From Candidatus Multivoradales bacterium (GTDB lineage: Bacteria; Acidobacteriota; Thermoanaerobaculia; Multivoradales; JAHEKO01): a stretch of 64,000 nucleotides of DNA. This document shows positions 18,403-61,763 of the stretch, one piece after another; the first letter of the stretch is position 1, and every line of letters begins with the position of its first letter. The translations under genes and the position numbers were made by a program. The notes under the pieces are model-generated. The model searched no databases. It worked only from the letters and a program-made list of their open reading frames with translations, and was not told the origin of the DNA. Location: NCBI GenBank assembly GCA_965223755.1, contig CBDCXF010000001.1:937256-1001255 (forward strand). The letters run 5' to 3'.

Positions 18403-18519
18403 GGGAGTGCTAGTGGCTAGTGGCTAATGGTCAGTGGTCAGTGGTCAGTGGTCAGTGGTCAGTGGTCAGTGGTCAGTGGTCAGTGGTCAGTGGTCAGTGG
18501 CCAGTGGCCAGTGGCCAGT
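18403..18519. repeat. heptanucleotide tandem array (GGTCAGT about x10, then GGCCAGT x3)
   Basis: Direct inspection. The ORF-track protein MVSGQWSVVSGQW… is a translation artefact of this array. Confidence 0.85.
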
Positions 18520-18526
18520 CATCGAC

Positions 18527-18600
18527 GTAGGGGAGCCCCTTGCGGGCTCCCGCGAGGAGACAAGCTTGCTCTGAGCGGCATCGAAGGGCCGGTCCCTTCC
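18527..18600. repeat. MITE-like palindromic element A (GTAGGGGAGCCCC…GCAAGCTTGC…TCGAAGGGCC)
   Basis: Homologous copies at 50973, 55452 (full length, both TIRs), 56573 (TIRs only) and 58402 (partial). Confidence 0.6.
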
Positions 18601-18647
18601 CTTGTCACTGTGGTTAGTGGCTGGTGGCTAGTGGCTAGCGGGATCCG

Positions 18648-19670
18648 TCATCCCCGCGTGCGGGGATCGGCGGGCGGATTCTGGCGAAAACGGGCCCGGA
18701 GCTTTGCGGTCGCCGCCCTCGTTCGTCGCAACTTGAACAGCCGGCGCTGCTCCTCGGCTTCCTCAAAGGTGTCGATGTCCTTGGCGAAGGAAAGCGCATT
18801 GACCAGCGGAATGCGGCCGCGGCGCTCGGGATGCGCTTTGCGGTGGCGCCAGCGAATCAAGATGGCGCGAATGCGATCGGCGAGCTCCTCGGTCGTCATC
18901 TCGCCGCCGCGCAGCCGGAGCGCAAGGCGGATGCTCTGCCACAGAGTCGGCAACGTCGCCACCGGAGGGCGCAGGCGCGCCAGATGCCGCAGATCCTGCC
19001 CGATCAGGAACCCGGCCAGGTGCATTGTGCCGTAGAACAGCCGGTACATCACCGATCGGTTGCGCGTACGGTACAGCAGGTCGAAGGCACGGTACACCAG
19101 CGGCAGGCGAAAGACGGCTGCGTCGACGATCATCAAGTGGCTTGGAAGAACCGCTCTCGACGCTTCGGCTTCTGAGGGTCGCAAGGTGTACTTCGGTTTC
19201 CACGCCGACTCGCCGAGCTCTTCGTCGGCGGCCAGGACCAGCGGATACCAAAAGTCCATCGGCACGTGGGCCCGGTAATCCGCCATCAGGGCGTCGAGTT
19301 CGTCGAGATCGGGGATGATGTCGTAGGTCGTGATGGCGAGAGGTTTGCCCGGATGAATCTCCGCCATCGCCTCAAGCACCGTGCGCACGTTGGCTCCCAA
19401 ACTGCGGTCGGTGTCAATGACCTGGGCGCCTTCTCGATTTTCGCCATAGACTGTTTTGGGGCCGGCGATGTAAGCCGGGGCGAAATGCCCCGAGCCAAGC
19501 ATGCGTTCGAGGACATGATCGATGAGCGGCCGTCCTTCGACCTGGACCTCGACGCCCTTTTTGCCTTGAATGGCGTGTTGACCCGAGCCCTCGGGCAGCG
19601 CCGCTGGCCGTTCATCGCTGCCAGCGAGTACCACCAAAGGTAACGGATGAAAATCGGCGCTCATCGCCAT
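18648..19670 (-). CDS. nucleotidyltransferase family protein (MobA-like NTP-transferase domain)
   Basis: N-terminal LVVLAGSDERP…GKKGVEVQVEGRPLIDHVLERM resembles the MobA/GlmU-type NTP_transf_3 family. The C-terminal half is uncharacterised. Confidence 0.5.
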   Translation of the reverse strand: MAMSADFHPLPLVVLAGSDERPAALPEGSGQHAIQGKKGVEVQVEGRPLIDHVLERMLGSGHFAPAYIAGPKTVYGENREGAQVIDTDRSLGANVRTVLEAMAEIHPGKPLAITTYDIIPDLDELDALMADYRAHVPMDFWYPLVLAADEELGESAWKPKYTLRPSEAEASRAVLPSHLMIVDAAVFRLPLVYRAFDLLYRTRNRSVMYRLFYGTMHLAGFLIGQDLRHLARLRPPVATLPTLWQSIRLALRLRGGEMTTEELADRIRAILIRWRHRKAHPERRGRIPLVNALSFAKDIDTFEEAEEQRRLFKLRRTRAATAKLRARFRQNPPADPRTRG

Positions 19671-21930: not shown

Positions 21931-24900
21931 AGGCCGCTCCGAAAAGGAGCGGCCCATTTGAAAGAAAGCCTCTAGCTCTGGCTAGCTAGCTTGAGAAGGT
22001 GCCCTAGCGCACCTCCACCGCCGGGTCACCGAGCAAGTTGTAGATCTTGAGCATGAAGTCGAAGACCTCACCATTGGACTGATCCAAGGTAGTCTTCACG
22101 GCTTCACCCAGTTCCACCGGACCGTGGCCAAATGCCGCGTCCAGCAGCTTCTGGTTCATCACATGCGCCGGATGGCTGTAGGAAAGGCCCGAGGGAGACC
22201 ACAGCCCAATTGCTCCACCCGTCGGCTCCATCACCAATTGCTCACCCAAGGTCGTCAACGACGGCCACGAGAAGTTCCCAACCACGCAGGTCAGCGAAGC
22301 CACGATCGGCAGACGGTCTCCGTTGCCAAAGCCAGGCACATCGGTCGACATCACCATGCCCTCCGAGGCAAAGCGGTCGATCCCGCCGTGACCCTGGAAG
22401 TTCACCCAAGACGCACCCACATACCACTCGGTACTGATCTGGCTGCGAGCCGTGGCCGTGTCCAGATCGCCCAAGGAGATGTGCGAGGTCGTCTTGATCC
22501 CGGATAGCTGATCCACCAAGACATCGGTGTCCATCGGGTAGATACCGGCCTGGTCGGCGTTGTCCGAAAGGAAGATGGCGCTCGATTCCCAAGCACCACC
22601 GCCGTTCTCATAGGCGATCAGCTTGTCAACGTAACTCTGAGCTTCAAGCCCCGTCTCAGCCGGAATGCGGCTGAAGATCACCTCGGGCGATCCGTTGCCG
22701 GTGACATCACCCAGGCCGATGTCCGAGGCCGCAAGGCCATTCGGCGTCGGCACGAAGCGCGCCGGAATGAGGTGGTCGGTGCGACCCGTGTAGTTCTTCG
22801 GATCGTGAGAACCCGTGCCCATCAGCACCACGTACTTGAGCTTCTCGCTCCAGCCGCTGTAGCCGTGCTCGGCCAGGGAAGCCAGACTCTCGACATCCGA
22901 GAGACCGAAGGCAAACTCGTCATAAACCTCTTCCAGGTCCACCACCATGGTCGAGTACTTCGAAGAGCGCAGGTTGGCCAGAGCCTCGGCCGCAGAGCGC
23001 GTCTCCGGCGTCGCCACCACCACGTACTCAGCACCGTCCGAGGTCTTGATCTTGGAAGGCGCGTCGGTACGCAGGTCGGACAAACGCTTCGCTGACGAAA
23101 CCGTAGACAGATCGTAGGTCGCCCCAGCCACCGTCGGCACCGTCACCGAGAAGCTGCCGTCAGCTTCTTCGGTGATCCTCGTCTTGCCCAAGTGGACCAG
23201 GTCGCCACCGTCGGAAGCAAAGGCCTCCACAGCACCCGCACTGAAGCCCTCCACCGTCGCCACGCCGTCGGCAAGAGCCGTGAAGCGCAAGCGATCGCCG
23301 ATCGCCCGCAGCGCCCGCGGATAACTGAGCGTAAAGCCGTCCACGTACACCACCGAGCCCGAGCTGCCCTCAAACACCAACTCAATGGTGTTGGCGTTGC
23401 TCAGCAAGGAGGAGTCGAAAGTGAAGCTGCCCACAAACATCTCGCGGTCCAACCACGAAGCTGTACCCACCTGCGTGCCGTTCACCTTGACACCCATCCG
23501 ATGACCGCCGCTCGGAGTAAACGTCGCACCCTGGAGGCGCACCTCCAGAGAGGCCGTACCCGAAGCCGGATCATTGGCCGCGATGGCAAAGCTCTGGGTC
23601 GCCGCGCCGCTCCAGGAGATCGACCAGCGCCAGTAGTCCGCATTGGGGTCGTCCTCGAGCCACAGCATCCCGTACACCTGCTCCTCGGCCTCGGAGGTCT
23701 CACTGTAGAGACCGCCGTAAAAAGGCGCGGGAGCGGCGCCGCTCTTGAGCGAGCCGGCAAGCTTCCCTTCACCGCGGCCGATCCAGTAGACGTTCTCATC
23801 GGTCGTGGCAAGGTCAATCGCCTCGCCTTCGAAGTAGAGGCCTGCTCCACCCTTCGGCGCCCACCAACCGATGGCGTTGCCGCGGTTAGTTACCATCACC
23901 GCATTGTCGCGGATCGACTTTTGGGTGTCGCTCTCACTGATACCCCAGGCCGTAGCAAGTTCTTGCGCGGAGACATACACCACCCCATCCTCGGTCACCG
24001 TACCCTTGGCCCAAGAGGTGCTAGCACCTCGACCGCGGGGACGGCCGTTGCGGCTCGGAGCCGCCGAGGAAACCGCACCGCGAGCACTCGGACCCGCAGC
24101 CGCTCGGACCGAGCCAGCTGACTTGGAGCCAGTTGACTTGGAGCCAGCTAACTTGGAGCCAGTTGACTTGCGGGCAGCCTGGCGCGCCTGGTAGCGCTCC
24201 GCCGGCGAAGCATCCCAAGCCTCACCGCTTGCCGTGAACGGGCCGTGCACGATCTCTTGACCCAGAACTCCGATCTCAACCACCACGTAGCGATCCCCTG
24301 GCTTGCCGGCAGGATCGAGAATCTCGTAAGTCGTACCCGCGCCAGCGCCAGGATCAGCCATCACCAGCTCGCTGTTGACCAAACTGTATTCCTTGGTTGA
24401 GCTGTCCCAGCGGTAGACGTCATAGGCCATCACTGCAGCCTCTGAAGCCGTGCGGAAGCTCACCTTGCCGCCCTGGGCACGCACACCCACCACCGTCGCC
24501 GGGTTGGGAGTAATCGTGAAGCCGGCATCCACATCCGTCACTTGATCCCCACTCTCGAGCACGAACACGTTGGTCAAGAATTCGCCATCCGCCTCGCCGT
24601 CGATCGCTGCATCATCAACGTAGACATCGCTGTCATTGGCGATGTCCTGGCTGGTGTCCGTGGGGTCCGGATCACCCACATCCTGAGCCGTTGCCGTCGC
24701 CGTGTCATAGGAACCCGAAGTCGGATCGATGCCCACGATGTAGTTGCCGGGAGGCAGCGGTTGCTCACCGTCCACCAAGGTAAACAAGTAGGCACCTCCG
24801 ACCGTCGTCTGCTGATCCACAAAGGTCAGTTCGTCAGGATCAACCGTGCCGTCATTGTCGGTGTCATCCCAGCGATACAGCGTCGCCACTCCATCAACCG

Positions 24901-27900
24901 TGCCGTCGCCCGCGTCCTGCGTCCCGTTGACCGGATCGTCGGCAAACAACTCACCGGCAATCGACGTTGGACGGTAGAAACCGGCGTCGATCGAAAAGTC
25001 GGAAACTCCCTGAGTCAGCAGTACGTCGACATCGGTCTCTCCAGAGCCGGAGCGAGAAGCATCGTTGTCACCACCACCACCCTCAGGGTCAAACACCGAA
25101 CCGTCTCCGTCACCATCCGGGCCGGTTTCGTTGTCGACCACTGTCGCCTCCCAAGTGTCGGCCAGACCGGAAGTGTCAAAGGTGATCGTGTAAGGCGTCG
25201 TGCTGAACGGCACATTGTTGAAGATGTACGAACCGGCAGGATCGATCGTCCCGTCACCGTCCACATCAGTCGTACCGTCCGAAGTCGTCGTCGTCAGACT
25301 CACAGCGTTGCCAAAAAGGTCCGTGCCCGTGAGCGTTACGACTACGCCCGCGATCCCAGGCTCGCCGGCATCCTGGATACCGTCACCGTCCACGTCCTCC
25401 CACACGAAGTCGCCAAGCTGCGCCACGGATTGAACGCCGAAGTCGTTGGTGTCGTCGGTCGTTCCCTGCTCGGGGTAGGCCGAAGTCCCGGACACCATGT
25501 CGGCATCGCCGTCGACTCCCGATCCTTGAGTCTCGCTGCTGTCAGCAGTCGCCCCAGAACCATCTTCGGTCGAGGCGTAGCCGATAAGGGCGTCCTGGGT
25601 CATGTCAACCGAGACGGTGTAGGTCGGCTCAGTCGAACCATCTCCGGTGTTGCCGTTGTAGTCCTCGTCAGCCAGTAGATTGTCGAAGCTATAAACCCCG
25701 TTTGCATCTGTAACCGTCACAAGCGTGACCGTTGAACCATCCGGATAAGAGATCGTCATCTCAACGGTGACCCCGGAAATTCCCGGCTCGCCCGTATCTT
25801 GAACGCCGTCACCGTCGTAGTCGTAGAAAACTGTGTCCCCGACCGAGCCCGGATCCACGTAGTAGCCGAAGTCGCCGGTCGAGTCCGTCGTACCGCCTGA
25901 AACGTTGATCAGGTACGGATCGTCCTGACTGTTGTTGTCGGCGCCATCATTGGGGCCGTCCGAGTGCCACATACCACCCAGTACGTTGTTCTCATCGGTG
26001 ACATCGATGGCGTAGGTGCCGTCCGGCAGACCTTCAAATGAGTAGTCCCCGTTGGCGTCGGTGGTCGTCGTGCCAACCAGATCACCCAATAGGGTGCCGT
26101 CGTCGCTGCCGTCGATCGCACCGTCGCCGTTGTAGTCAACTTGCCCGTCGATGATGTCGTAGCCGTTGATCGAGCCGTCGTCGTTGGCGTCGATCACGCC
26201 GTCGCCGTTGACGTCGAAGGCGCCGTCGATCACCGCGATGCCACCAAAGGTGCCGTCGTCGTTGCCGTCCACCACCCCGTCGCCGTTGACATCGACTCCG
26301 CCGTCAATGATGCCCGCGGCCTCGTAGAGATCCACCGTCACGCCCTCAAGGCCGGCGCCGGTCTCGTCCAGAGTGCCGTTGCCGTCGGTGTCTTCCCACA
26401 CCGTGCCACCGATGGTGTTGGGCGTCGAGGCGACGTAGCCGAAGTCCTGATCGAGATCGATGCCGCCCGAAGCCCCCAGATCCACAGCAGAAGTCGAATC
26501 CCCGCCGCCGTCCGGATCGTCGGTGTTGGTCAGACCCGTCCCGCCGTTGGGAAGCGTCGACGTCTCGATCTCCACAATGTAGTGAGCATTCGGATCGAGA
26601 CCACCAAAATAGTAGCTGCCGTTTTCGTTCGTCGTCGCGGTCGCGATGATCGGCTCGCCAGGGTCCAAAACGCCGTCACCGTCCAGGTCATCGTAGAGAT
26701 TCACGGTGACCCCCTCGAGCCCGGCCTCGTCCGCGTCCTGCGTACCATCCCCGTCAGCGTCGAGATAGATGTTGTCGCCGATCAAACCGGTATCGCTGTT
26801 CTGGCCCGGCGGCGTGTAGCCGAAGTCCAAATCGGTGACATCCGTGCCCCCGACCGTGACCGAAGTCTGGTCATCGAGAACCGCATCGGGATCGCCGCTT
26901 TGGCTCAATCCCTCGAGGACATTGGCGGTGTCGCCCACCACCACGTTGTAGTCACCCGCAGGTACATCGGTGAAGGTGTAGTCGCCGTTTTCATCAGTTG
27001 TAGTTGTGGCAACAATGATCCCCAGCGTGCCGTCGTCCGTCGCATCGATGACGCCGTCGCCATTGATGTCGACTTCACCGTCGATCACCGTCACCCCGCC
27101 GACGCTGCCGTCATCATTGCCGTCGATGACGCCATCGCCGTTGACATCGAGCTGGCCGTCGATGACATTGATGCCATCGACCGTCCCGTCGTCGTTGCCG
27201 TCGATAACGCCGTCGCCGTTGACGTCGATTTGGCCGTCGATGATGTCGTAGGTCTCGACCAAGTTGACCGTGACCCCCTCAATGCCATCGTCGGAACCGG
27301 TACCGATGTCGTTGGCACCGTTGCCGTCGGCATCCAGATACACCGTTCCGGAAACATCCGCCAAACTGGTGTTCTGGTAGCCGAAGTCGGTGTTGACAAC
27401 CACATCACCAGGAGCCAAAACGATCGGTGAAGTTGTGGTGCCGTCGTTGGCCGCCGCACTGGTGTCGGTCGAACCGAAGTGATCGGGGTCACCGGTCTGG
27501 GTGTACCCGGTCAGCACGTTGTTGTCGTCCGTCACCGTCAAGGTGTACACCCCTGGATCGAGGTCGTCAAAAGCGTAGTTGCCGGTGCTATCCGTGGTAG
27601 TCGTCGCAATCGGAATCTCAGCCGTACCGTCGTCGCTGCCGTCGATGACTCCGTCACCGTTGACATCCAACTGGCCGTCGATCACCGTCACCCCATTGAG
27701 CGTGCCGTCATCGGCCGCCGTAATCGAACCGTCGCCATCGAGGTCGATTTGACCGTTGATGATGTCGAGCGGGTCACCGTTGTCGTCGAGCACCGTGCCG
27801 CTGTCGCTGGCGTCGATGACGCCGTCGCCGTTGAGGTCGATCGCACCGTCGATGACGGTCTCCACCTCGGCCAGCAAGACCGTGACCCCTTCAATGCCCA

Positions 27901-28338
27901 ACTCACCTTCGTCCTGGATGCCGTCGCCGTCGGCGTCGTTCCAGATCCGGTCGCCGATCGCGCCGGTGCCGGTGTTGGTGTCGGTCTCATCGGTAGTTGA
28001 GTAGTTGTAGCCAAAGTCGACAATGTCGATGTCCTCGCCGGCATTGAGAGTGATCGTGGACTGGCTGTCCAAGGTCGAATCCGGATCGCCGGTCTGGTTG
28101 GTGAGACCCGTCGGCAGGGTGCTGGTGTCGACCGCCACCGTGTAGTCGCCAGGAGGCACATCGTCAAAGATGTAGTCGCCATTGGCATCCGACGTCGTGG
28201 TCGCGATCGCGGTTGTCGCATCGCAAGGCGAAACACCGGCCTCACAGAGGTATACCGTGACATTGGCAATGCCGTCTTCACCGGCATCCTGAATACCATC
28301 GCCGTCCTCATCCAACCAGATCGAGTCGCCGATCGAGC
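21931..28338. repeat. 6.4-kb direct repeat, copy 1 (shared 3' cassette plus terminator)
   Basis: Near-identical to 33233-39640 at a constant offset of 11,302 nt. The six-frame ORF sets are duplicated with single-residue differences. About 9 aa substitutions across 2,111 shared codons. Confidence 0.9.
21932..21954 (-). terminator. rho-independent terminator of giant gene 1
   Basis: ggccgctcc-gaaaa-ggagcggcc. On the minus-strand transcript it is followed by UUUUUCUUUUUCCC. Duplicated at 33234-33256. Confidence 0.65.
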
Positions 28339-31300
28339 CGGTCTCCGGAACCAGGCCCGCGTCTAGCGTCGTGTTGCTCTCGCCCGAGCCGAGGAAGAAG
28401 GTCGTCGTTTGACCCGTCGATGGATCAGCGTCGGAGTCGAGCGTGTCATCGCCGCCCGCGTCCTGAGTCGTGAAATCCCAGCCAGCCGGAGCGGTGAACG
28501 TCACCGAGTAGTTGCCCGACACCAAGTTGTTGAAGAGATAGGAGCCGTCAGCGGCGGTCGTCGTCACCAAGGTCACCGAATTGCCGAAAATATCGACTCC
28601 GGTCAGCGTCACGGTCACACCTTCGATGCCCGCTTCTCCGCCATCCTGAATGCCGTCGCCATCGTCGTCCGACCACACGGAGTCGCCAACGGACGCCGGC
28701 TGCACCAGTCCAGCGTCTACGGTGTCGTTGACCTCGCCCTGGGCGAGAGTGATGGTCCCGGTCTGACCGAAGACATTGATGTCGCTGTCGACGCTGTCAT
28801 CACCGCCGGCATCTTGAACGGTCGGCAAATAGCCGCTGGGCGCGACGAAACCAAGCTGGTAGTCGCCAGCGACCAGATCGTCAAACTCGTAGGAACCCGC
28901 AGGATCGATGATTCCATCTCCATCTACATCGGTGGTGCCATCGGAAGTCACCGTGGTGTAAAGAGCGTTGGAGGCGTCACACGTCGTCACTGTCTCCTCG
29001 CACAGGTACACCGTGACTCCAGAGATCCCCGGCTCGCCCGAATCCTGGATGCCATCACCGTCCAGGTCTTCCCAAACGAGGTCGCCAATAACCGACGTAT
29101 TGGTGCTCGGCGGCATGCAGAACTCGTCGGAGGCGCTCTCTGGTCCGGTGGTCGCCGTCGCCGTGTTGCAGATCTCGTCGGGTGGAGCGGGTAGACTATC
29201 CACCACCACTTGGAAGGTTACGGTCGCCGTTTGTCCAACATTCAGGACGAACGGAATCAACGCTCCTCCCTCATCAAGCGGAAACACTGTCGTTCCCACT
29301 CCGTCGTCAGCCAACGGTGCAGGCCCAGAGCCATCGTTGGGATCGACCGTCGTCGTATTGGGCACGTAGCTCACGAACGAGGGCAAAAAGTCCTCTACCG
29401 AAAGCGAGTTGATGGGCACAAATCCAACGTTGGTGAGATCCAACTGGTAGGTGATGGTTTCGCCGACATTGGGCTGTCCGTCCCCGTTCGGATCGTCGGT
29501 CACCGACCCAGACTTAACCGTCGCAATCGAGGCCACATTGGGAATCGCGGTGCCGAGGTCGATGGCCGGGCTACCGCCTGTGGCGGTATCGGGATCCTGT
29601 CCCCAGGCAACCGCAATCGCGGTCGAATCCTGGTCGGCGGCATCGTCGTCGCAGACCCAAATGGCCATGCCAGTCTGGTCGCCGTCGGGATCGTAGAGGA
29701 TGGTGCTGTCGAGGGGATCAACCTCCAAGCGCAGGTCGTACTCCAACCCGGTGACGGGATCGATATTGGGAGTGGCGACAATCGTCTCCAACTCCAAGGT
29801 GGCTCCGAGAAATGTGCCATCGTCAGCAGAGGGAAAAACGTCGCAAATTGCCAATGTCCAAGTACCAGCGGAACTCTCCCCGTTGAACGAAGTGTCGGCC
29901 CATAAAACGCTGCGCTCGTAGTTGAAATCGTTCTCAACAGTATCGTTGTCGCCATCGTCGAGGGCTCCGCCACTGCCGGTCAGATAGATGTCGTAGTTAT
30001 CCAGGGAATCGGTCCCGCTCGACGCAATCACGGTTACCGTCGTTCCGTCCGGCGATGTCAGCGTCGCCTGGATATCCCCTCGATAAGCATGCGAGGCCTC
30101 AAATCCAAGGTTGACCTCAGAGACAGTGAAGATGCCGGCAACGTTAAACGTCCGCACTAACTCTCCGCCGCCACAGGTGGTTGTCCCATCGATGGCCCCA
30201 TCTGTGCCGTTGTTGACGGTCGTTTGGATCGTCGATGTGCCGCTGGTCGCATCCGTGCCGTCATTGTCATAGTCGACGCACAGAGTGATCTTGCCGTCGA
30301 CCAAAGCGCTGCCGTCGACCGAATCCGCGGTGACCCACACCGGGCTCGAGTTTTCCGAGCTGGTAACCAGAGGATCGTTGCCAAATCCGAGGCCTACAAG
30401 AGCTTGTTGTGTGAGCTGGGTCTCCGGCACAAGAGTGAAACCCCAATCGTGGGCATCGCTGCTGTTGGGGACAGTGTTGGTCGTATCGTTGGTGTTGGCG
30501 TCGATGTCGATCGAGGCAATCGCGTAAAAAGCCTCCCCTGCGGGATCACACGTCGTGTTGTCGGTAGTGGTGCAGAAATGGGCACCGCTGCCGTTCGGCA
30601 TGACATAACTGGCCGTACTTCCGGCGGGCACGACCACGGTCGCCGTGCCACCGCCCTGCAGCTCAACCAGCACCGTGATACCGCTGGCCGAGGGGTTGTA
30701 CAGAGTCACCGAGGTGGTGTCGTCACCGCCCGAACTGGTCGGGTTGTAGTAGCTGTTACTCCAATCTTCCACGGGGAAGAGGGTGTAGAAGCGCGACTCG
30801 TAGTTGTCACAAATATCGCCCGCAAGGAGCCCAACTTGCACCGGGGCCGAGGACTCCACCGTTGCTCCTAGCAAAACTCCACCGTCGGCGAAATATGTCT
30901 GGCCTTCATTCAAGATCACCGTGGTGTCAACCACACCATCGGCGTTCAAATCCACATCCACGACCGTACCGTCTTCCTGGGCCATAACCGTCATACCGAT
31001 GTACTGGAAGGGTTCGTTGGTTTCGCTAAAAACGTCTTCTCCAATGGGGGCCTCATAGGCGGTGCCCCAGTTGTCAGTGGAGTACATCTCAAACGCACCG
31101 GCGAGCAAGGTCGTAGTGCTGTCTGCCCAATTGGCCTTGGTCATCGAGATGGTGTCAGTTGCCGCCACCTTGTCGCCCCCGTCGAAGTCGATGACCGACT
31201 CGAGGGTGGTAGAAGTCACCTGATTCTCAAGCAGGATGACGCTGCCCTGATCGAGCACGTCGCAGGCGTCAGCAGCACATCCTGGGGGCGCGCCGTTGGA

Positions 31301-32971
31301 AGCGTCTCCGTCACCCCACACCTCCGTCGTTGCCTGCAACGGAGCATTGATCTCGTCCTCGAAACCGTCCTCCCAGTGGTCGTAATAGATGATGGTGTTA
31401 TCGCGCAACACCGCAATCGAGGTATAGGAACTGGTCGGGTCGACCGGCGCGGACACGCTCGGGCAGCTCTCTCCGCCGGTCGTCGCGTTGGGATAGATCG
31501 ACTGCAACGCTGCCAGCAGCTCGTCCTCGGGTAGAGGCATGTAATAGGTCGTGACCGGTGGCGGTCCCTGTGAAGGCGGAACATTAACGACCACGGTGTT
31601 GGAGTTGACTGGCGAAGTCTGGTCGCTGTCCACGCTCGCGGTGTTGGAGATCGAGCCGGCAGTCACATCGGCCGCCGTCACCGTGTAGGTTCCTGTCAGC
31701 ACACAGCTTTCGCCCGTATTCACCGAAGCACAGGTTTCACTACTGGGAGTCAGTGGAAGGCCGGTGTCGCTGACGACAACGTTGGTGAAAGTTGTCGCAG
31801 GGGCCGCATACACCTCCACCTCCCCAATATTGAGCGCGTCGCCTCCAGGGTTAGTCCCCGATTTTTGCAGACGGACATATCTACCCGTGACTCCGCCGAC
31901 CGGAACATTGAAGTCTTGACCTGTGGTCGTCGAAGGAAGCTGGAATTCGAACTCCGCGGTGGCGCGGGCGTCGGACAGGTTGATCGCCCCGCCGCCCGCC
32001 GTCGGAAACGGATCGTCGGAGACCAGCACGTAGACATTGCCAAGGCGATCCGAGCAGCAGTCATCGCGGTTGAAGATGGCGATGGAGTCGATGAACTGCA
32101 GTGAGCCCAAGTCGACCTGCCACCAATCGTTGACCTCTGTACCGGCAGTATGGGCCATGCCTTCAAAGGTGTTCGCGCCTGTCGTATCACCATCGATGGC
32201 ATTGGCGGCCACGAGGTTGTTGCCGTTACTGAGAGTCGTCCACTGGCTCGCCGTCCCCGATAACGCCACGTTGGTTGGAGACCCACTAAATCCAGCGGTG
32301 GCCGTAACCGTGTAGGTCAATACATCGCCCTCGGAGACACGCCCGTCGCCGTCTCCATCTGCATTGGTCGGCGTTGACTTGACGATCTGTAGCTCGCTAG
32401 TCGACGGCGGCGTGCCATCAAACTCGAGAGTCAACGACTGGTAGGAAGGTTGGGTGCCCGACGGCCCCGCCGTCCAGGTCATGGTCAGGGTCCAAATCCC
32501 CATTGCTTGCTCGCCGTCAAACGCTGACAAAGCGTTTTCGGGAATGCGATCGCGTCCGGTTGCTGGAGCTGTATGGTTGGTGGTATCCGATTCGAGCGTC
32601 GTCACCGCTTCGTCATCGAGACGCGCGAACAGGTTCTCGCCCAGAGCCGCAAGTTGGTTGCCCACGTGAAGCAAAACTGAAGTGCCGATCGGAGACTGCA
32701 ACGATACGTCGATCCCGCCACGGTTGATCGTCGTCAGACTGACGACCGCGTTGAGGTCGTTGACGGTAAAGTCATCGGTAACGTTGATGGTCGCCGTCAC
32801 CGTCCCTGCCGGGCCGCTGGCGGTGCTGTCGGTGTAGTTGAATGGATCGGCCGCCGATGGGCCGGCTGCCAAAGCCAAGACGCCAACGACCAACGCGAAT
32901 CGCCGAAAAGTGGATCGGCAATGTCGTCCATGCAAAAGAGACCCTTTTAGGGCCTTGGCTGGTTCTTTCAT
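22004..32971 (-). CDS. giant secreted Ca-binding surface protein 1, about 3,655 aa. Order: signal peptide, P-domain, DUF11, discoidin, P-domain, SdrD-B-like repeats with dockerin-like Ca loops, C-terminal peptidase C25 (gingipain-like) domain
   Basis: ATG at 32971 with a GGGGAG RBS and signal FRRFALVVGVLALAAGPSAADP (the ORF is open to 33082). Proprotein-convertase P-domain-like segments (DVSLQSPIGTSVLL and GDIQATLTSPDGTTVTVI). F5/8-C discoidin (WWQVDLG). About 10 SdrD-B-like modules (IGDxIWxDxDGDGIQDxGE). Three blocks of DxNGDGxIDxxDDG triplets. C-terminal C25 motifs YVVLMGTGSHD, NFQGHGG, LTCVVGNF and LLGDPAVEVR. The 3' 6.4 kb is more than 99% identical to 33233-39640. Confidence 0.8.
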   Translation of the reverse strand: MKEPAKALKGSLLHGRHCRSTFRRFALVVGVLALAAGPSAADPFNYTDSTASGPAGTVTATINVTDDFTVNDLNAVVSLTTINRGGIDVSLQSPIGTSVLLHVGNQLAALGENLFARLDDEAVTTLESDTTNHTAPATGRDRIPENALSAFDGEQAMGIWTLTMTWTAGPSGTQPSYQSLTLEFDGTPPSTSELQIVKSTPTNADGDGDGRVSEGDVLTYTVTATAGFSGSPTNVALSGTASQWTTLSNGNNLVAANAIDGDTTGANTFEGMAHTAGTEVNDWWQVDLGSLQFIDSIAIFNRDDCCSDRLGNVYVLVSDDPFPTAGGGAINLSDARATAEFEFQLPSTTTGQDFNVPVGGVTGRYVRLQKSGTNPGGDALNIGEVEVYAAPATTFTNVVVSDTGLPLTPSSETCASVNTGESCVLTGTYTVTAADVTAGSISNTASVDSDQTSPVNSNTVVVNVPPSQGPPPVTTYYMPLPEDELLAALQSIYPNATTGGESCPSVSAPVDPTSSYTSIAVLRDNTIIYYDHWEDGFEDEINAPLQATTEVWGDGDASNGAPPGCAADACDVLDQGSVILLENQVTSTTLESVIDFDGGDKVAATDTISMTKANWADSTTTLLAGAFEMYSTDNWGTAYEAPIGEDVFSETNEPFQYIGMTVMAQEDGTVVDVDLNADGVVDTTVILNEGQTYFADGGVLLGATVESSAPVQVGLLAGDICDNYESRFYTLFPVEDWSNSYYNPTSSGGDDTTSVTLYNPSASGITVLVELQGGGTATVVVPAGSTASYVMPNGSGAHFCTTTDNTTCDPAGEAFYAIASIDIDANTNDTTNTVPNSSDAHDWGFTLVPETQLTQQALVGLGFGNDPLVTSSENSSPVWVTADSVDGSALVDGKITLCVDYDNDGTDATSGTSTIQTTVNNGTDGAIDGTTTCGGGELVRTFNVAGIFTVSEVNLGFEASHAYRGDIQATLTSPDGTTVTVIASSGTDSLDNYDIYLTGSGGALDDGDNDTVENDFNYERSVLWADTSFNGESSAGTWTLAICDVFPSADDGTFLGATLELETIVATPNIDPVTGLEYDLRLEVDPLDSTILYDPDGDQTGMAIWVCDDDAADQDSTAIAVAWGQDPDTATGGSPAIDLGTAIPNVASIATVKSGSVTDDPNGDGQPNVGETITYQLDLTNVGFVPINSLSVEDFLPSFVSYVPNTTTVDPNDGSGPAPLADDGVGTTVFPLDEGGALIPFVLNVGQTATVTFQVVVDSLPAPPDEICNTATATTGPESASDEFCMPPSTNTSVIGDLVWEDLDGDGIQDSGEPGISGVTVYLCEETVTTCDASNALYTTVTSDGTTDVDGDGIIDPAGSYEFDDLVAGDYQLGFVAPSGYLPTVQDAGGDDSVDSDINVFGQTGTITLAQGEVNDTVDAGLVQPASVGDSVWSDDDGDGIQDGGEAGIEGVTVTLTGVDIFGNSVTLVTTTAADGSYLFNNLVSGNYSVTFTAPAGWDFTTQDAGGDDTLDSDADPSTGQTTTFFLGSGESNTTLDAGLVPETGSIGDSIWLDEDGDGIQDAGEDGIANVTVYLCEAGVSPCDATTAIATTTSDANGDYIFDDVPPGDYTVAVDTSTLPTGLTNQTGDPDSTLDSQSTITLNAGEDIDIVDFGYNYSTTDETDTNTGTGAIGDRIWNDADGDGIQDEGELGIEGVTVLLAEVETVIDGAIDLNGDGVIDASDSGTVLDDNGDPLDIINGQIDLDGDGSITAADDGTLNGVTVIDGQLDVNGDGVIDGSDDGTAEIPIATTTTDSTGNYAFDDLDPGVYTLTVTDDNNVLTGYTQTGDPDHFGSTDTSAAANDGTTTSPIVLAPGDVVVNTDFGYQNTSLADVSGTVYLDADGNGANDIGTGSDDGIEGVTVNLVETYDIIDGQIDVNGDGVIDGNDDGTVDGINVIDGQLDVNGDGVIDGNDDGSVGGVTVIDGEVDINGDGVIDATDDGTLGIIVATTTTDENGDYTFTDVPAGDYNVVVGDTANVLEGLSQSGDPDAVLDDQTSVTVGGTDVTDLDFGYTPPGQNSDTGLIGDNIYLDADGDGTQDADEAGLEGVTVNLYDDLDGDGVLDPGEPIIATATTNENGSYYFGGLDPNAHYIVEIETSTLPNGGTGLTNTDDPDGGGDSTSAVDLGASGGIDLDQDFGYVASTPNTIGGTVWEDTDGNGTLDETGAGLEGVTVDLYEAAGIIDGGVDVNGDGVVDGNDDGTFGGIAVIDGAFDVNGDGVIDANDDGSINGYDIIDGQVDYNGDGAIDGSDDGTLLGDLVGTTTTDANGDYSFEGLPDGTYAIDVTDENNVLGGMWHSDGPNDGADNNSQDDPYLINVSGGTTDSTGDFGYYVDPGSVGDTVFYDYDGDGVQDTGEPGISGVTVEMTISYPDGSTVTLVTVTDANGVYSFDNLLADEDYNGNTGDGSTEPTYTVSVDMTQDALIGYASTEDGSGATADSSETQGSGVDGDADMVSGTSAYPEQGTTDDTNDFGVQSVAQLGDFVWEDVDGDGIQDAGEPGIAGVVVTLTGTDLFGNAVSLTTTTSDGTTDVDGDGTIDPAGSYIFNNVPFSTTPYTITFDTSGLADTWEATVVDNETGPDGDGDGSVFDPEGGGGDNDASRSGSGETDVDVLLTQGVSDFSIDAGFYRPTSIAGELFADDPVNGTQDAGDGTVDGVATLYRWDDTDNDGTVDPDELTFVDQQTTVGGAYLFTLVDGEQPLPPGNYIVGIDPTSGSYDTATATAQDVGDPDPTDTSQDIANDSDVYVDDAAIDGEADGEFLTNVFVLESGDQVTDVDAGFTITPNPATVVGVRAQGGKVSFRTASEAAVMAYDVYRWDSSTKEYSLVNSELVMADPGAGAGTTYEILDPAGKPGDRYVVVEIGVLGQEIVHGPFTASGEAWDASPAERYQARQAARKSTGSKLAGSKSTGSKSAGSVRAAAGPSARGAVSSAAPSRNGRPRGRGASTSWAKGTVTEDGVVYVSAQELATAWGISESDTQKSIRDNAVMVTNRGNAIGWWAPKGGAGLYFEGEAIDLATTDENVYWIGRGEGKLAGSLKSGAAPAPFYGGLYSETSEAEEQVYGMLWLEDDPNADYWRWSISWSGAATQSFAIAANDPASGTASLEVRLQGATFTPSGGHRMGVKVNGTQVGTASWLDREMFVGSFTFDSSLLSNANTIELVFEGSSGSVVYVDGFTLSYPRALRAIGDRLRFTALADGVATVEGFSAGAVEAFASDGGDLVHLGKTRITEEADGSFSVTVPTVAGATYDLSTVSSAKRLSDLRTDAPSKIKTSDGAEYVVVATPETRSAAEALANLRSSKYSTMVVDLEEVYDEFAFGLSDVESLASLAEHGYSGWSEKLKYVVLMGTGSHDPKNYTGRTDHLIPARFVPTPNGLAASDIGLGDVTGNGSPEVIFSRIPAETGLEAQSYVDKLIAYENGGGAWESSAIFLSDNADQAGIYPMDTDVLVDQLSGIKTTSHISLGDLDTATARSQISTEWYVGASWVNFQGHGGIDRFASEGMVMSTDVPGFGNGDRLPIVASLTCVVGNFSWPSLTTLGEQLVMEPTGGAIGLWSPSGLSYSHPAHVMNQKLLDAAFGHGPVELGEAVKTTLDQSNGEVFDFMLKIYNLLGDPAVEVR

Positions 32972-33232
32972 GAACTCCCCGGCGAGTGCCACCCGACTGA
33001 AGATGACTGCGGAGTGGTCTAATGACTCACGCCAGTCACTACCGTCAAGTCCTTTGTTCGGCAGTAAGCGTCCCCCAAACACTTACTAGGGTGGGGCGAT
33101 CACGGGATCGCCCGTGGATCATGTTGGCCGAACAGGCGGCCAACAAGTGCGCAAATTGTCACCGTCTGGCGATAATGTCAACTGTTGTAGCCATGCAGTA
33201 CGGAGGGGTTGGGGAACGGGCACACAAGAAAT

Positions 33233-36200
33233 AGGCCGCTCCAAAAAGGAGCGGCCCATTTGAAAGAAAGCCTCTAGCTCTGGCTAGCTAGCTTGAGAAG
33301 GTGCCCTAGCGCACCTCCACCGCCGGGTCACCTAGCAAGTTGTAGATCTTGAGCATGAAGTCGAAGACCTCACCATTGGACTGATCCAAGGTGGTCTTCA
33401 CGGCTTCACCCAGTTCCACCGGACCGTGGCCAAATGCCGCGTTCAGCAGCTTCTGGTTCATCACATGCGCCGGATGGCTGTAGGAAAGGCCCGAGGGAGA
33501 CCACAGCCCAATTGCTCCACCCGTCGGCTCCATCACCAATTGCTCACCCAAGGTCGTCAACGACGGCCACGAGAAGTTCCCAACCACGCAGGTCAGCGAA
33601 GCCACGATCGGCAGACGGTCTCCGTTGCCAAAGCCAGGTACATCGGTCGACATCACCATGCCCTCCGAGGCAAAGCGGTCGATCCCGCCGTGACCCTGGA
33701 AGTTCACCCAAGACGCACCCACATACCACTCGGTGCTGATCTGGCTGCGAGCCGTGGCCGTGTCCAGATCGCCCAAGGAGATGTGCGAGGTCGTCTTGAT
33801 CCCGGATAGCTGATCCACCAAGACGTCGGTGTCCATCGGGTAGATACCGGCCTGGTCGGCGTTGTCCGAAAGGAAGATGGCGCTCGATTCCCAAGCACCA
33901 CCGCCGTTCTCATAGGCGATCAGCTTGTCAACGTAACTCTGAGCTTCAAGCCCCGTCTCAGCCGGGATGCGGCTGAAGATCACCTCGGGCGATCCGTTGC
34001 CGGTGACATCACCCAGGCCGATGTCCGAGGCCGCAAGGCCATTCGGCGTCGGCACGAAGCGCGCCGGAATGAGGTGGTCGGTGCGACCCGTGTAGTTCTT
34101 CGGATCGTGAGAACCCGTGCCCATCAGCACCACGTACTTGAGCTTCTCGCTCCAGCCGCTGTAGCCGTGCTCGGCCAGAGAAGCCAGACTCTCGACATCC
34201 GAGAGACCGAAGGCAAACTCGTCATAAACCTCTTCCAGGTCCACCACCATGGTCGAGTACTTCGAAGAGCGCAGGTTGGCCAGAGCCTCGGCCGCAGAGC
34301 GCGTCTCCGGCGTCGCCACCACCACGTACTCAGCACCGTCCGAGGTCTTGATCTTGGAAGGCGCGTCGGTACGCAGGTCGGACAAACGCTTCGCTGACGA
34401 AACCGTAGACAGATCGTAGGTCGCCCCAGCCACCGTCGGCACCGTCACCGAGAAGCTGCCGTCAGCTTCTTCGGTGATCCTCGTCTTGCCCAAGTGGACC
34501 AGGTCGCCACCGTCGGAAGCAAAGGCCTCCACAGCACCCGCACTGAAGCCCTCCACCGTCGCCACGCCGTCGGCAAGAGCCGTGAAGCGCAAGCGATCGC
34601 CGATCGCCCGCAGCGCCCGCGGATAACTGAGCGTAAAGCCGTCCACGTACACCACCGAGCCCGAGCTGCCCTCAAACACCAACTCAATGGTGTTGGCGTT
34701 GCTCAGCAAGGAGGAGTCGAAAGTGAAGCTGCCCACAAACATCTCGCGGTCCAACCACGAAGCTGTACCCACCTGCGTGCCGTTCACCTTGACACCCATC
34801 CGATGACCGCCGCTCGGAGTAAACGTCGCACCCTGGAGGCGCACCTCCAGAGAGGCCGTACCCGAAGCCGGATCATTGGCCGCGATGGCAAAGCTCTGGG
34901 TCGCCGCGCCGCTCCAGGAGATCGACCAGCGCCAGTAGTCCGCATTGGGGTCGTCCTCGAGCCACAGCATCCCGTACACCTGCTCCTCGGCCTCGGAGGT
35001 CTCACTGTAGAGACCGCCGTAAAAAGGCGCGGGAGCGGCGCCGCTCTTGAGCGAGCCGGCAAGCTTCCCTTCACCGCGGCCGATCCAGTAGACGTTCTCA
35101 TCGGTCGTGGCAAGGTCAATCGCCTCGCCCTCGAAGTAGAGGCCTGCTCCACCCTTCGGCGCCCACCAACCGATGGCGTTGCCGCGGTTAGTTACCATCA
35201 CCGCATTGTCGCGGATCGACTTTTGGGTGTCGCTCTCACTGATACCCCAGGCCGTAGCAAGTTCTTGCGCGGAGACATACACCACCCCATCCTCGGTCAC
35301 CGTACCCTTGGCCCAAGAGGTGCTAGCACCTCGACCGCGGGGACGGCCGTTGCGGCTCGGAGCCGCCGAGGAAACCGCACCGCGAGCACTCGGGCCCGCA
35401 GCCGCTCGGACCGAGCCAGCTGACTTGGAGCCAGTTGACTTGGAGTCAGTTAACTTGGAGCCAGTTGACTTGCGGGCAGCCTGGCGCGCCTGGTAGCGCT
35501 CCGCCGGCGAAGCATCCCAAGCCTCACCGCTTGCCGTGAACGGGCCGTGCACGATCTCTTGACCCAGAACTCCGATCTCAACCACCACGTAGCGATCCCC
35601 TGGCTTGCCGGCAGGATCGAGAATCTCGTAAGTCGTACCCGCGCCAGCGCCAGGATCAGCCATCACCAGCTCGCTGTTGACCAAACTGTATTCCTTGGTT
35701 GAGCTGTCCCAGCGGTAGACGTCATAGGCCATCACTGCAGCCTCTGAAGCCGTGCGGAAGCTCACCTTGCCGCCCTGGGCACGCACACCCACCACCGTCG
35801 CCGGGTTGGGAGTAATCGTGAAGCCGGCATCCACATCCGTCACTTGATCCCCACTCTCGAGCACGAACACGTTGGTCAAGAATTCGCCATCCGCCTCGCC
35901 GTCGATCGCTGCATCATCAACGTAGACATCGCTGTCATTGGCGATGTCCTGGCTGGTGTCCGTGGGGTCCGGATCACCCACATCCTGAGCCGTTGCCGTC
36001 GCCGTGTCATAGGAACCCGAAGTCGGATCGATGCCCACGATGTAGTTGCCGGGAGGCAGCGGTTGCTCACCGTCCACCAAGGTAAACAAGTAGGCACCTC
36101 CGACCGTCGTCTGCTGATCCACAAAGGTCAGTTCGTCAGGATCAACCGTGCCGTCATTGTTGGTGTCATCCCAGCGATACAGCGTCGCCACTCCATCAAC

Positions 36201-39200: not shown

Positions 39201-39640
39201 CAACTCACCTTCGTCCTGGATGCCGTCGCCGTCGGCGTCGTTCCAGATCCGGTCGCCGATCGCGCCGGTGCCGGTGTTGGTGTCGGTCTCATCGGTAGTT
39301 GAGTAGTTGTAGCCAAAGTCGACAATGTCGATGTCCTCGCCGGCATTGAGAGTGATCGTGGACTGGCTGTCCAAGGTCGAATCCGGATCGCCGGTCTGGT
39401 TGGTGAGACCCGTCGGCAGGGTGCTGGTGTCGACCGCCACCGTGTAGTCGCCAGGAGGCACATCGTCAAAGATGTAGTCGCCATTGGCATCCGACGTCGT
39501 GGTCGCGATCGCGGTCGTCGCATCGCAAGGCGAAACACCGGCCTCACAGAGGTATACCGTGACATTGGCAATGCCGTCTTCACCAGCATCCTGAATGCCA
39601 TCGCCGTCCTCATCCAACCAGATCGAGTCGCCGATCGAGC
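33233..39640. repeat. 6.4-kb direct repeat, copy 2
   Basis: See copy 1. Divergence begins immediately 5' of the codons for IGDSIW (39640 versus 28338). Confidence 0.9.
33234..33256 (-). terminator. terminator of giant gene 2 (duplicated hairpin)
   Basis: ggccgctcc-aaaaa-ggagcggcc. Lies inside the duplicated segment. Its U-tract is weaker than in copy 1. Confidence 0.5.
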
Positions 39641-42548: not shown

Positions 42549-42851
42549 TCAGCGCTCGTGGAGCTCGTCTTGCTTGGGATAGGTGTCTCCCTTTCCTTTG
42601 AGAATCACCCCAGTTCCTTTGAGAATCACCCCAGTTCCTTTGAGAATCACCCCAGGCCGCTGCAGGTACCTCTCCATTGCAGACTGATAGGCGCTCTCTT
42701 GCTCCATCTGTCCTTCCAGCATCAACCTAAGAAGACGCGAAACACTCATGTCTTCCTGCGCCGCGCGGATGCGTGCCCAACGGGCGACCGGGCGCACTCG
42801 CCCGTCACTCTCCCTGGCGGGCGGACTGGGGACCGGAACGACATAATCCAC
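42549..42851 (-). CDS. putative RHH/CopG-type antitoxin (VapB-like) with a C-terminal 7-aa tandem repeat
   Basis: Helix …RIRAAQEDMSVSRLLRLMLEGQ is typical of RHH antitoxins. The C-terminus GVILKGT x3 is encoded by a 21-bp tandem repeat. The start is uncertain: the 5' end abuts the divergent Elp3-like gene with a 2-nt gap. Confidence 0.4.
   Translation of the reverse strand: MDYVVPVPSPPARESDGRVRPVARWARIRAAQEDMSVSRLLRLMLEGQMEQESAYQSAMERYLQRPGVILKGTGVILKGTGVILKGKGDTYPKQDELHER
42595..42657. repeat. 21-bp tandem repeat x3 (TTTGAGAATCACCCCAGTTCC)
   Basis: In frame (7 aa GVILKGT) within the antitoxin ORF. It places stop codons in the vapC reading frame. Confidence 0.8.
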
Positions 42852-42853
42852 CC

Positions 42854-61561: not shown

Positions 61562-61763
61562 TGAAAACCCCCTTCTGAGTCGTGGGTTGGTGTTAACACG
61601 CAGCTTCGCAGCAAGAAAGTGAACCTGCGCCGACTGAACATTGCGTTCCATTGCTGCAGCGATCTTAAACTATTCTTGTTACAGCTCAACCCAGTCCGCG
61701 CCCAGGTCTTTCCTTCCAAAAGAAGACGGGGCTTTGCTTCCAAAAGAGGAAAGGCGACGCCGA

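Follow-up and report, generated by a model that had tools for sequence, protein, structure and literature searches.

The window, a 64,000-nt stretch of DNA, carries two giant genes on the minus strand, here called copy 1 and copy 2. Copy 1 (22004-33082) is an open reading frame of 3692 aa from a GTG at 33082, with its stop codon at 22004-22006. Its true start is likely the ATG at 32971, which would yield 3655 aa; this start was read by eye, and a Shine-Dalgarno-like sequence, GGGGAG, stands 4 nt upstream of it. Copy 2 (33306-40976) encodes 2556 aa. Copy 1 has a Sec-type signal peptide (…FALVVGVLALAAGPSAA/DP) and copy 2 has a hydrophobic, signal-like N-terminus (…MALFAMVINLIAITPTAVWA/NP), both as read by eye, and no lipobox Cys was seen by eye in either signal peptide. 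An intrinsic-terminator-like hairpin (GGGCCGCTCC-TTTTC-GGAGCGGCC followed by a T-run) lies at 21931-21955 on the minus strand, 49 nt past the copy 1 stop, and a near-identical hairpin with the loop TTTTT lies at 33234-33257 on the same strand, downstream of copy 2. Because each copy is followed by such a hairpin, each paralogue looks like a separate transcription unit.

The two copies have a 6,336-nt region in common, at 99.45% identity. Its 35 differences are scattered over the length of the repeat, 25 of them synonymous versus 10 non-synonymous, and both copies are under purifying selection. Tandem 6.3-kb segments with such an identity are of a kind that assemblers collapse or duplicate, and the locus could be read as a mis-assembled repeat or as decaying pseudogenes with non-functional C25 ends. 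We rejected this reading as extremely improbable because both ORFs, 7.7 and 11.1 kb long, are uninterrupted, the differences are scattered and mostly synonymous, and the copies have separate terminators and distinct 5′ regions. Both proteins are also on record from one same contig, and tandem C25 paralogues were found in two other loci (L016 and L043) too. It is nearly certain that the two genes are tandem, recent duplicates encoding Sec-exported giant fibrillar surface proteins.

The paralogues are set apart by their N-terminal tips, as the stalk and the C-terminal cassette are common to both. The tip of copy 1 (28337-32971, minus strand) extends to aa 1582, and Pfam finds in it two proprotein-convertase P-domain-like modules, an F5/8 type C (galactose-binding-like) lectin domain, DUF7507, DUF11 and the first SdrD_B repeats. 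The N-terminal region proper to copy 2 (39639-40976, minus strand; aa 1-446) has a SpaA_2 prealbumin-like domain at aa 322-439, and its first ~320 aa have no counterpart in Pfam or among PDB sequences. The common stalk lies at 24518-28336 in copy 1 (aa 1583-2855), within the 6,336-nt common region, and at 35820-39638 in copy 2 (aa 447-1719), both on the minus strand. It is made up of SdrD B-like, CarboxypepD_reg and SpaA-type beta-sandwich repeats with Asp/Gly-rich inserts. The Pfam SdrD_B family matches 11 stretches of copy 1 (E = 3e-140) and 9 stretches of copy 2 (E = 4e-84), and a stalk of the Ca-binding beta-sandwich type is nearly certain. A repeated stalk with a distal binding domain, as expected of fibrillar adhesins, is thus present in the form of SdrD_B, F5/8 type C, P-domains, DUF11 and SpaA. 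Pfam and NCBIfam scans of both copies detected no LPXTG motif, CTD, beta-barrel or T1SS retention module.

Behind the stalk comes the conserved unit, a cassette of ~840 aa that runs from an FN3-like domain through a basic disordered linker to a PorU core. We hold these domain identities, including a PorU-type core with a C25 clan CD catalytic domain, with very high confidence. The FN3-like beta-sandwich, named the TASE domain, opens the cassette (copy 1: 24209-24517, minus strand; module residues 1-103, aa 2856-2958). It is conserved as strongly as the catalytic domain, with T23, E26, R36, G61, Y64, D68, Y77, E81 and G92 retained in at least 96%. The linker of ~65 aa (copy 1: 24014-24208, minus strand; module residues 104-168) contains a short predicted helix (SPAERYQARQAARK) and then a low-complexity stretch rich in Ser, Gly, Lys and Arg, and is a candidate processing or recognition region. 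The accessory domains of the core (copy 1: 23033-24013, minus strand; module residues 169-495) are three: a small alpha/beta domain, a CBM-like jelly-roll beta-sandwich and an Ig-like beta-sandwich. None of the individual non-catalytic cassette domains matched a significant family in Pfam scans.

The C25 catalytic domain itself occupies 22007-23032 of copy 1 on the minus strand (module residues 496-837; Pfam match 22013-23026), with the dyad codons for His3565 at 22388-22390 and for Cys3599 at 22286-22288. The whole cassette of copy 2 lies at 33309-35819, also on the minus strand, with the FN3-like domain at 35511-35819, the linker at 35316-35510, the accessory domains at 34335-35315 and the catalytic domain at 33309-34334, where the His and Cys codons are 33690-33692 and 33588-33590. 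The two cassettes differ in 12 codons, 9 synonymously and 3 non-synonymously.

A sequence-only reading of this DNA had placed a gingipain-like C25 peptidase domain at the extreme C-terminus of both giants, and this placement holds, as each protein stops 2 aa past the Pfam match of the catalytic domain. Pfam PF01364 scores 204.7 and 205.2 bits against a cut-off of 23 bits, covering profile positions 1-373 of 374. The catalytic dyad, said to be intact in both copies, is so: the His of the GHG motif and the Cys are in register with RgpB His211 and Cys244, and they are conserved in 155 of 155 relatives. The predicted fold of the catalytic domain is caspase-like alpha/beta, very near that of gingipains, and this domain is indeed followed by neither an Ig-like, adhesin or CTD module nor a sorting signal. 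Adhesin-type modules do come first, with ~1,700-2,850 aa of them ahead of the conserved cassette.

The kinship and architecture, on the other hand, have to be redrawn. By profile comparison, the T9SS sortase PorU is the closest relative, and the gingipains are not. With the family profile, the last ~670 aa align with PorU from its N-terminus through its catalytic domain (6za2_A residues 13-793, E = 7.8e-78), while the RgpB match (E = 5e-24) is limited to the catalytic domain. In PorU the C25 domain had been called N-terminal, but ~370 aa of accessory domains precede it there, and they occur here too. What had been described as a reversed architecture is instead a PorU core that lacks the C-terminal third of PorU (residues ~794-1158, with the Ig-like domains and the T9SS CTD through which PorU is exported and docked to PorV) and has gained the FN3-like domain, the basic linker and a variable N-terminal passenger of 1,700-2,850 aa. 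The PorU equivalog NF033707 gives 185.8 and 188 bits, below its curated cut-off of 420 bits; PorU-type relatives from Bacteroidota, Ignavibacteria and Poribacteria give 282-381 bits.

In the gingipains RgpB and Kgp (C25.001 and C25.002), a prodomain stands before the catalytic domain, and IgSF, haemagglutinin/adhesin domains and a CTD follow it. None of these is found here, and the domains upstream of C25 are of the PorU type, not a gingipain prodomain. In the profile alignment, which is uncertain in that loop, the position of RgpB Asp163 (Arg-specificity, S1) is Pro or Tyr, Asp655 aligns with RgpB Glu152, and Asp163 has no clear equivalent. The hosts probably differ as well. The PorU host has a T9SS, whereas the close relatives of the present proteins, and probably their host too, are Acidobacteriota-type or other diderms not known for T9SS; Pfam scans found no T9SS genes among 22 window ORFs. 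Matches of a housekeeping protein at about 70% identity had mixed labels, largely Acidobacteriota with some Planctomycetes and Polyangia, and the assignment of the host to Acidobacteriota is tentative.

The C-terminal position of C25 is not an oddity of these two proteins but the norm in a very large family, as 150 of the 165 relatives examined have the end of the cassette no more than 30 aa from their C-terminus. Their N-terminal extensions are highly variable, from 49 to 2,406 aa, and 35 of the best 150 relatives are at least 2,000 aa long. The closest relatives come from Acidobacteriota, Gammaproteobacteria, Desulfobacterota and Verrucomicrobiota. Of 53 loci, drawn from genomes of at least 5 phyla, 51 have the ORF end on the contig; in these, C25 ends 0-101 aa before the stop, and within 30 aa of it in 47. 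By comparison, 540-950 aa follow C25 in 23 of the 26 PorU-type relatives with a complete end. Sequence clusters at E = 1e-30 or better number 3,209, an upper bound because PorU-type relatives may be counted in. We are nearly certain that a large family outside Bacteroidota has this cassette as its constant part, joined to highly variable N-terminal passengers. No significant Pfam family was detected in the passengers of seven shorter relatives.

Both the FN3-like domain and the linker are invariable features of this clade and specific to it. The linker was found in 155 of 155 representatives, 39-165 aa long, with an R+K content of 19% versus 7% in the catalytic domain. A motif, [FYW]x[RK]x[PA][RKH], occurs in the linkers of 51 of the 155, versus 3.9 expected (13-fold over shuffles), and is positionally constrained; the window copies have it in degenerate form only, in the segment ERYQARQAARK, and are not in this strict count. 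In 81 fetched loci and the window, the FN3-like domain was confined to C25 proteins and never occurred as a cargo tag on other proteins, and a database-wide search with it returned four short fragments. One apparently complete protein, P0068 (885 aa), has little beyond a signal peptide and the cassette. Most of the supposed minimal members (~820-900 aa) turned out to be N-terminally truncated fragments, and P0068 alone looks complete. A literature search for this C25 clade or the radical-SAM cassette that adjoins some of its genes found nothing relevant; no member is characterised.

The window neighbours of the giants are housekeeping genes, syntenic with a relative. The syntenic orthologue in relative L081 has the same cassette with a wholly different N-terminus of 240 aa. 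Cassette identity to the syntenic relative is 43%, versus 63-88% for the neighbours, so the cassette evolves faster. Downstream of copy 1, the terminator is followed by a TerC gene, which is syntenic in the relative. The host is a diderm, as OmpA and TonB-type outer-membrane proteins are encoded in the window. In ~18-21 of 53 related loci, a gene cassette with radical-SAM/SPASM, PqqD, HprK-like and S26-like genes abuts the C25 gene. It is absent from the 64-kb window, and none of its genes appears among the Pfam labels of called genes in the relative's 10.7-kb syntenic locus. The linker motif is not correlated with this gene cassette, occurring in 5 of 21 loci with it and 5 of 14 without it.

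We propose, with a probability of about 0.4, that the linker is where the C25 enzyme processes or anchors the protein it belongs to. The self-processing, release or transpeptidation that the sequence-only reading had suggested is consistent with the anatomy. The enzyme sits at the C-terminus, where surface proteins usually have a signal for sorting or anchoring, and would act on its own polypeptide, either intramolecularly or between adjacent copies. After export, the Cys would attack a peptide bond of the linker, past the FN3-like domain, leaving the passenger as the acyl group of a thioester in the manner of T9SS cargo on PorU. This intermediate could then be resolved by an amine of a cell-surface glycan or lipid, anchoring the passenger covalently, or alternatively by water, releasing it. 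In either case the peptidase module would be the enzyme and the leaving group at once.

Several features would suit such cis-processing. A constant C-terminus with a variable N-terminus is a pattern familiar from devices for secretion and anchoring, among them autotransporters, T9SS CTD cargo and LPXTG proteins. One would expect a recognition or cleavage region to look like an invariant FN3-like domain with a linker that carries an enriched, positioned motif. If the chemistry is that of PorU, in which the cargo donates the acyl group and the C-terminal piece leaves (PMC10202324), cis transfer could be possible only for a passenger N-terminal to the enzyme. We count against cis-processing that neither an acceptor nor a partner gene for the C25 module is encoded in the 64-kb window, and that the linker motif is merely degenerate in the window proteins. 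The composition of the linker also speaks against it, being rich in Arg, Lys, Ala and Ser, whereas PorU cuts after T/E/D/N. So does the AF2 model, which docks nothing confidently in the active site because the linker pLDDT is only 26-50. P0068 fits an autonomous enzyme equally well as a self-sorting device. A broader version is tentative and rather unlikely as a whole: the cassette may be a self-contained single-polypeptide sorting device that cuts at the linker, transfers or releases the passenger and discards itself. This would be a sortase-like route for T9SS-less diderms, possibly the ancestral context of PorU recruitment, coupled in many lineages to the radical-SAM/SPASM, PqqD, HprK-like and S26-like gene cassette.

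The main rival, possible though on the unlikely side, is a surface or secreted protease that acts in trans on external proteins, with the stalk and the lectin-type tips binding substrates, particles or cells, so that no self-processing is needed. The strictly conserved dyad in a fold very near gingipains, the CBM-like domain beside the catalytic domain, the near-minimal P0068 and the fast evolution of the cassette, which is like that of exposed enzymes and adhesins, all agree with this. However, it leaves unexplained why the enzyme is constantly last and why an invariant FN3-like domain and a basic disordered linker precede the PorU core, and the closest homologue is a sortase and not a degradative gingipain (8e-78 versus 5e-24). 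Fibrillar adhesins usually vary at their distal, ligand-binding end; since the N-terminus is the variable end here, the protease would be at the base.

It is doubtful that the module works in trans on other cargo, as a sortase or signal peptidase, with a PorU-like role in non-T9SS export or attachment and a passenger that merely positions it. Homology over the full PorU core would suit this, and the radical-SAM gene cassette adjoining part of the loci suggests a multi-gene maturation pathway, but that gene cassette is missing from the window and the relative's locus as described, and no candidate cargo family with a common recognition domain turned up in the fetched loci, the FN3-like domain being confined to C25 proteins. 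Nor would a housekeeping sortase be expected with hypervariable passengers of up to 2,400 aa, or in duplicates with different tips. Caspase-like domains placed C-terminal-most in large secreted proteins can also be toxins (Zhang et al. 2012, PMC3482391), and a polymorphic toxin or an effector with such a toxin domain was considered. We rejected it as very improbable because the polarity is opposite, with the C-terminus constant and the N-terminus variable, because the terminator and the syntenic TerC gene, not an immunity-type gene, lie downstream, and because Pfam finds no RHS, PAAR or pre-toxin modules in either giant.

The locus belongs to a large, widely distributed and uncharacterised sister group that keeps the PorU core without the T9SS export domain and has C25 as the C-terminal end of variable, often giant surface proteins. 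To our knowledge, PorU is the sole C25 enzyme with a known sortase role, and it is considered specific to the Bacteroidota T9SS. Should the module process or anchor the protein that carries it, this would be a new Gram-negative way to attach or shed adhesins. It would then explain the working of thousands of proteins annotated merely as C25 family cysteine peptidases and have implications for how the T9SS attachment machinery arose. If the module is merely a tethered protease, the proteins are still better named PorU-like than gingipain-like, and the arrangement that looked reversed is characteristic of the family.

Cis-processing by the C25 module would have functional analogies in other self-cutting domains. 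The CPDs of MARTX and large clostridial toxins (family C80, clan CD) are likewise clan CD peptidases inside very large secreted proteins, and they autoprocess. The CPDs are C80, internal and release C-terminal or flanking effectors in the host cell, whereas the present module is C25 and terminal, with its cargo on the N-terminal side. The caspase-like releasing peptidases of large surface proteins also cut their own polypeptide (Zhang et al. 2012, PMC3482391). The legumain-type ligases (OaAEP1) and the GPI transamidase GPI8 are clan CD transpeptidases as well, but distant ones of family C13 rather than C25, which work in trans on separate substrates. MSCRAMM-like fibrillar adhesins have SdrD_B/CnaB-type stalks, as the giants do, whose lectin-type tips are N-terminal. 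MSCRAMMs, however, end in LPXTG and depend on a separate sortase in Gram-positive hosts, whereas here the C-terminus is itself a sortase-like enzyme in a diderm.

Both giant proteins end in a full-length C25 peptidase domain. In copy 1 (3692 aa; 22004-33082, minus strand), the Pfam Peptidase_C25 match covers aa 3353-3690 (22013-23026, minus) with E = 3e-60, and in copy 2 (2556 aa; 33306-40976, minus), it covers aa 2217-2554 (33315-34328, minus) with E = 2e-60. Profile positions 1-373 of 374 are covered in both, with 2 aa remaining, so the HMM check against Pfam C25 bears out the extreme C-terminal placement made in the sequence-only reading. That reading had also correctly located the catalytic codons, His at 22388-22390 and Cys at 22286-22288 (minus) in copy 1 and 11,302 nt further on in copy 2. 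Its motif equivalences with the gingipain catalytic domain hold as well: direct comparison with solved structures pairs NFQGHGG with NYTGH211GS and LTCVVGNF with VAC244VNGDF of RgpB, and the family profile alignment pairs the terminal LLGDPA with FGDPS of RgpB. Every feature that could be tested for C25 family membership was found, and by its sequence, the C-terminal module is an intact clan-CD enzyme related to PorU.

When the last 837 aa and their homologues were made into a family profile, it matched the T9SS sortase PorU (PDB 6ZA2) with E = 7.8e-78 over PorU residues 13 to 793, comprising the N-terminal accessory domains and the catalytic domain, whereas RgpB (E = 5e-24 and 1e-21) and Kgp (E ~7e-15) were matched in the catalytic domain only. 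Foldseek likewise ranks PorU ahead of the gingipains (E = 2e-28, ~800 aligned columns). The earlier description as gingipain-like with a reversed architecture thus stands for the terminal position of C25, but not for the nearest relative, and the gingipain architecture is missing from the window proteins. They are not PorU proper either, as the curated PorU model scores 186-188 bits over aa 3161-3690, well short of its 420-bit cut-off, and no T9SS genes were found among the 22 window ORFs scanned with Pfam. PorU residues 794-1156, made of Ig-like domains and the CTD for export through the T9SS and docking of PorU, have no counterpart here, while the FN3-like domain and disordered linker upstream of the PorU core are absent from PorU. 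Judged from sequence, the region is better described as a PorU core minus the T9SS tail, plus an FN3-like domain, a basic linker, and a giant N-terminal passenger.

Across an alignment of 155 family sequences, the catalytic His and Cys never vary, and conservation of the FN3-like domain equals that of the catalytic domain. In the window and 81 related loci, an FN3-like HMM matches solely C25 proteins of the C-terminal-C25 clade, with no match in PorU-type loci. The linker is present in all 155 sequences (39-165 aa), with an R+K content of 19% versus 7% in the catalytic domain. A motif, [FYW]x[RK]x[PA][RKH], occurs in linkers of 51 of the 155 sequences, where shuffles predict 3.9; its position is constrained, and it often reads F/Y-x-R-x-P-H/R, ~13-37 aa past the conserved 'HGPF' that closes the FN3-like domain. 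By eye, a basic amphipathic helix follows the motif in many linkers. The window linkers (24014-24208 in copy 1 and 35316-35510 in copy 2, minus) are ~65 aa long, rich in Arg/Lys/Ala/Ser, and modeled with pLDDT of 26-50; they contain only a degenerate version of the motif, ERYQARQAARK.

The C-terminal arrangement is widespread. When 1.84 billion cluster representatives were searched exhaustively with HMMER, 11,216 matched at E <= 1e-3, of which 3,209 reached E <= 1e-30. Among the best 150, almost every protein has the complete ~820-aa cassette (query ~19-836) at its extreme C-terminus; lengths run from 673 to 3,222 aa (at least 2,000 aa in 35/150). No more than 30 aa lie beyond the catalytic domain in 150 of 165 relatives, and among relatives with a plausible signal peptide, the region before the cassette spans 49 to 2,406 aa (median 656). 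Among the best 80 of 143 loci confirmed in genome assemblies, two groups were seen. The closer group (53 loci, 31-41% identity) comes from Thermoanaerobaculia, Holophagales, Aminicenantes, Vicinamibacteria, Competibacteraceae, Chromatiaceae, Sedimenticola, Desulfobulbus, Polyangiales, and Verrucomicrobiota; where the 3′ end is complete (n = 51), the stop lies 0-101 aa past the C25 domain, and within 30 aa in 47. The distant group (25-30% identity) is mostly from Bacteroidota, Ignavibacteria, and Poribacteria, with 540-950 aa after the C25 domain in 23 of the 26 loci with a complete end, and T9SS/FlgD-like CTDs terminate 4/4 inspected. A minority of proteins, such as P0103, P0129, P0108, and P0161, have a ~150-aa tail after C25 with the motif …F[TS]xx[EQ]LA[DN]…[DN]xDPDxDG…N…EYAxGxxP…, which may be a different localisation domain.

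The closest homologue, P0001 (1,061 aa, 44% identity), lies in locus L081, which is syntenic with the window (DUF885, YceI, C25, TerC, PDZ, a 348-aa gene, DUF3604). Its neighbors share 63-88% identity with the window genes (PDZ gene 44%), versus only 43% for the cassette. Because P0001 bears the same cassette behind a 240-aa N-terminus unrelated to the window passengers, the cassette in the window lineage has gained much longer, different passengers and then undergone duplication. YceI directly precedes C25 in L081, whereas three extra genes separate YceI from the giants in the window, encoding a PhzF-family protein (45017-45850), an Elp3-like radical-SAM + GNAT protein (42773-44599), and a SAM-dependent methyltransferase (41225-42010). 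The giants are surrounded by housekeeping genes (M16 peptidases, TerC, methyltransferase, Elp3-like radical-SAM/GNAT, PhzF, OmpA, TonB-type outer-membrane protein), and no secretion system is linked to the giant genes among their window neighbors. An OmpA/BON protein (53757-54779) and a 1,030-aa outer-membrane protein with N-terminal CarboxypepD_reg, Plug, and OMP_b-brl_4 barrel (58559-61651) indicate a diderm host. The host probably belongs to the Acidobacteriota. Elsewhere in the window, a short tandem DNA repeat at 18427-18520, translating to (VVSGQWS)x4, opens an ORF (18427-19035) that is probably spurious and lies opposite the gene at 18648-19670.

The two window genes share their last 6,336 nt (22004-28336 and 33306-39638, minus) with 99.45% identity. 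The 35 differences are 25 synonymous and 10 non-synonymous, of which 9 and 3 fall in the cassette, and this pattern contradicts an assembly artefact. The shared region has a sharp upstream edge where an SdrD_B repeat begins (copy 1 aa 1583, copy 2 aa 447) and extends beyond the stop codon through a strong terminator hairpin (21931-21955 after copy 1, 33234-33257 after copy 2). The most likely start of copy 1 is ATG 32971, preceded by a Shine-Dalgarno-like GGGGAG. With this start signal, the terminators, and the difference pattern, each copy appears to be an independent gene under selection. Tandem C25 paralogues are also seen at two related loci, L016 and L043. Upstream of the boundary, copy 1 has P-domain-like modules, an F5/8 type C lectin domain, DUF7507, and DUF11 (Pfam), and copy 2 (aa 1-446; 39639-40976, minus) has ~320 aa without Pfam or PDB sequence match, followed by a SpaA_2 domain. 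By eye, those ~320 aa include a vWA/MIDAS-motif-like stretch, DMIVVVDETGSIG. In the stalk (~24518-28336), several SdrD_B-type repeats are broken by Asp/Gly-rich inserts, read by eye as two or three repeats each of IDGQ(I/L)DVNGDGVIDGxDDG, which look like EF-hand or dockerin-type Ca-binding loops.

In several phyla, ~18-21 of the 53 closer loci have a conserved four-gene cassette directly adjoining the C25 gene, encoding a radical-SAM/SPASM maturase, a ~93-aa PqqD-like protein, an HprK-related-kinase-like protein weakly matching ScmC of the SynChlorMet cassette, and an S26 signal-peptidase-I-like protein (L027:3624-6265, L042:11605-15494, L049:11469-13949, L045:11596-14230, and L002:8113-10902, for example). 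At L027, the order is S26, HprK, PqqD, rSAM, and C25, and the 43-nt gap between rSAM and C25 leaves no room for a separate precursor gene, a hint that modification may act on the C25 protein itself. No correlation is seen between presence of these genes and the strict linker motif, and tblastn finds none of them in the 64-kb window.

C25 is always the last domain, always with the conserved FN3-like domain and basic disordered linker ahead, and the N-terminal passenger is what varies, across the family and between copies 1 and 2. An invariant C-terminal part joined to changeable N-terminal passengers would mark a device for secretion or anchoring. PorU cuts the linker ahead of its cargo's C-terminal domain, holding the cargo as a thioester and passing it to an A-LPS amine, small amines, or water (review PMC10202324). 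By such chemistry, we infer, a transferable passenger must be N-terminal to the scissile bond. The device-like C-terminus and the thioester chemistry together suggest that the enzyme's substrate is its own linker, in cis or between adjacent molecules, whereby the passenger would be anchored to an envelope acceptor or else released, and the enzyme itself would be the leaving group. We consider this the most economical reading, at a probability of roughly 0.4. Against it, the linker does not dock confidently in the structure model, and its composition is unlike that of known PorU cleavage sites.

The main rival, a tethered protease working in trans with the stalk as its targeting device, is somewhat less likely. 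A sortase acting in trans on other cargo is improbable, as no candidate cargo tag was found in the window or the 81 related loci. Two observations contradict a polymorphic toxin: variation has the inverted polarity, and there is no immunity gene.

The window genes are ordinary members of the C-terminal-C25 family, notable mainly for size and recent duplication. Largely explained, they point to a large, coherent family whose mechanism could be tested directly. No paper on this clade was found in the literature, and public records give such proteins no more specific name than 'C25 family cysteine peptidase' or 'hypothetical protein'. The concept of clan-CD autoprocessing modules in very large secreted proteins is already known, the CPDs of MARTX and clostridial toxins being such modules, and Zhang et al. 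[quoted passage not shown]
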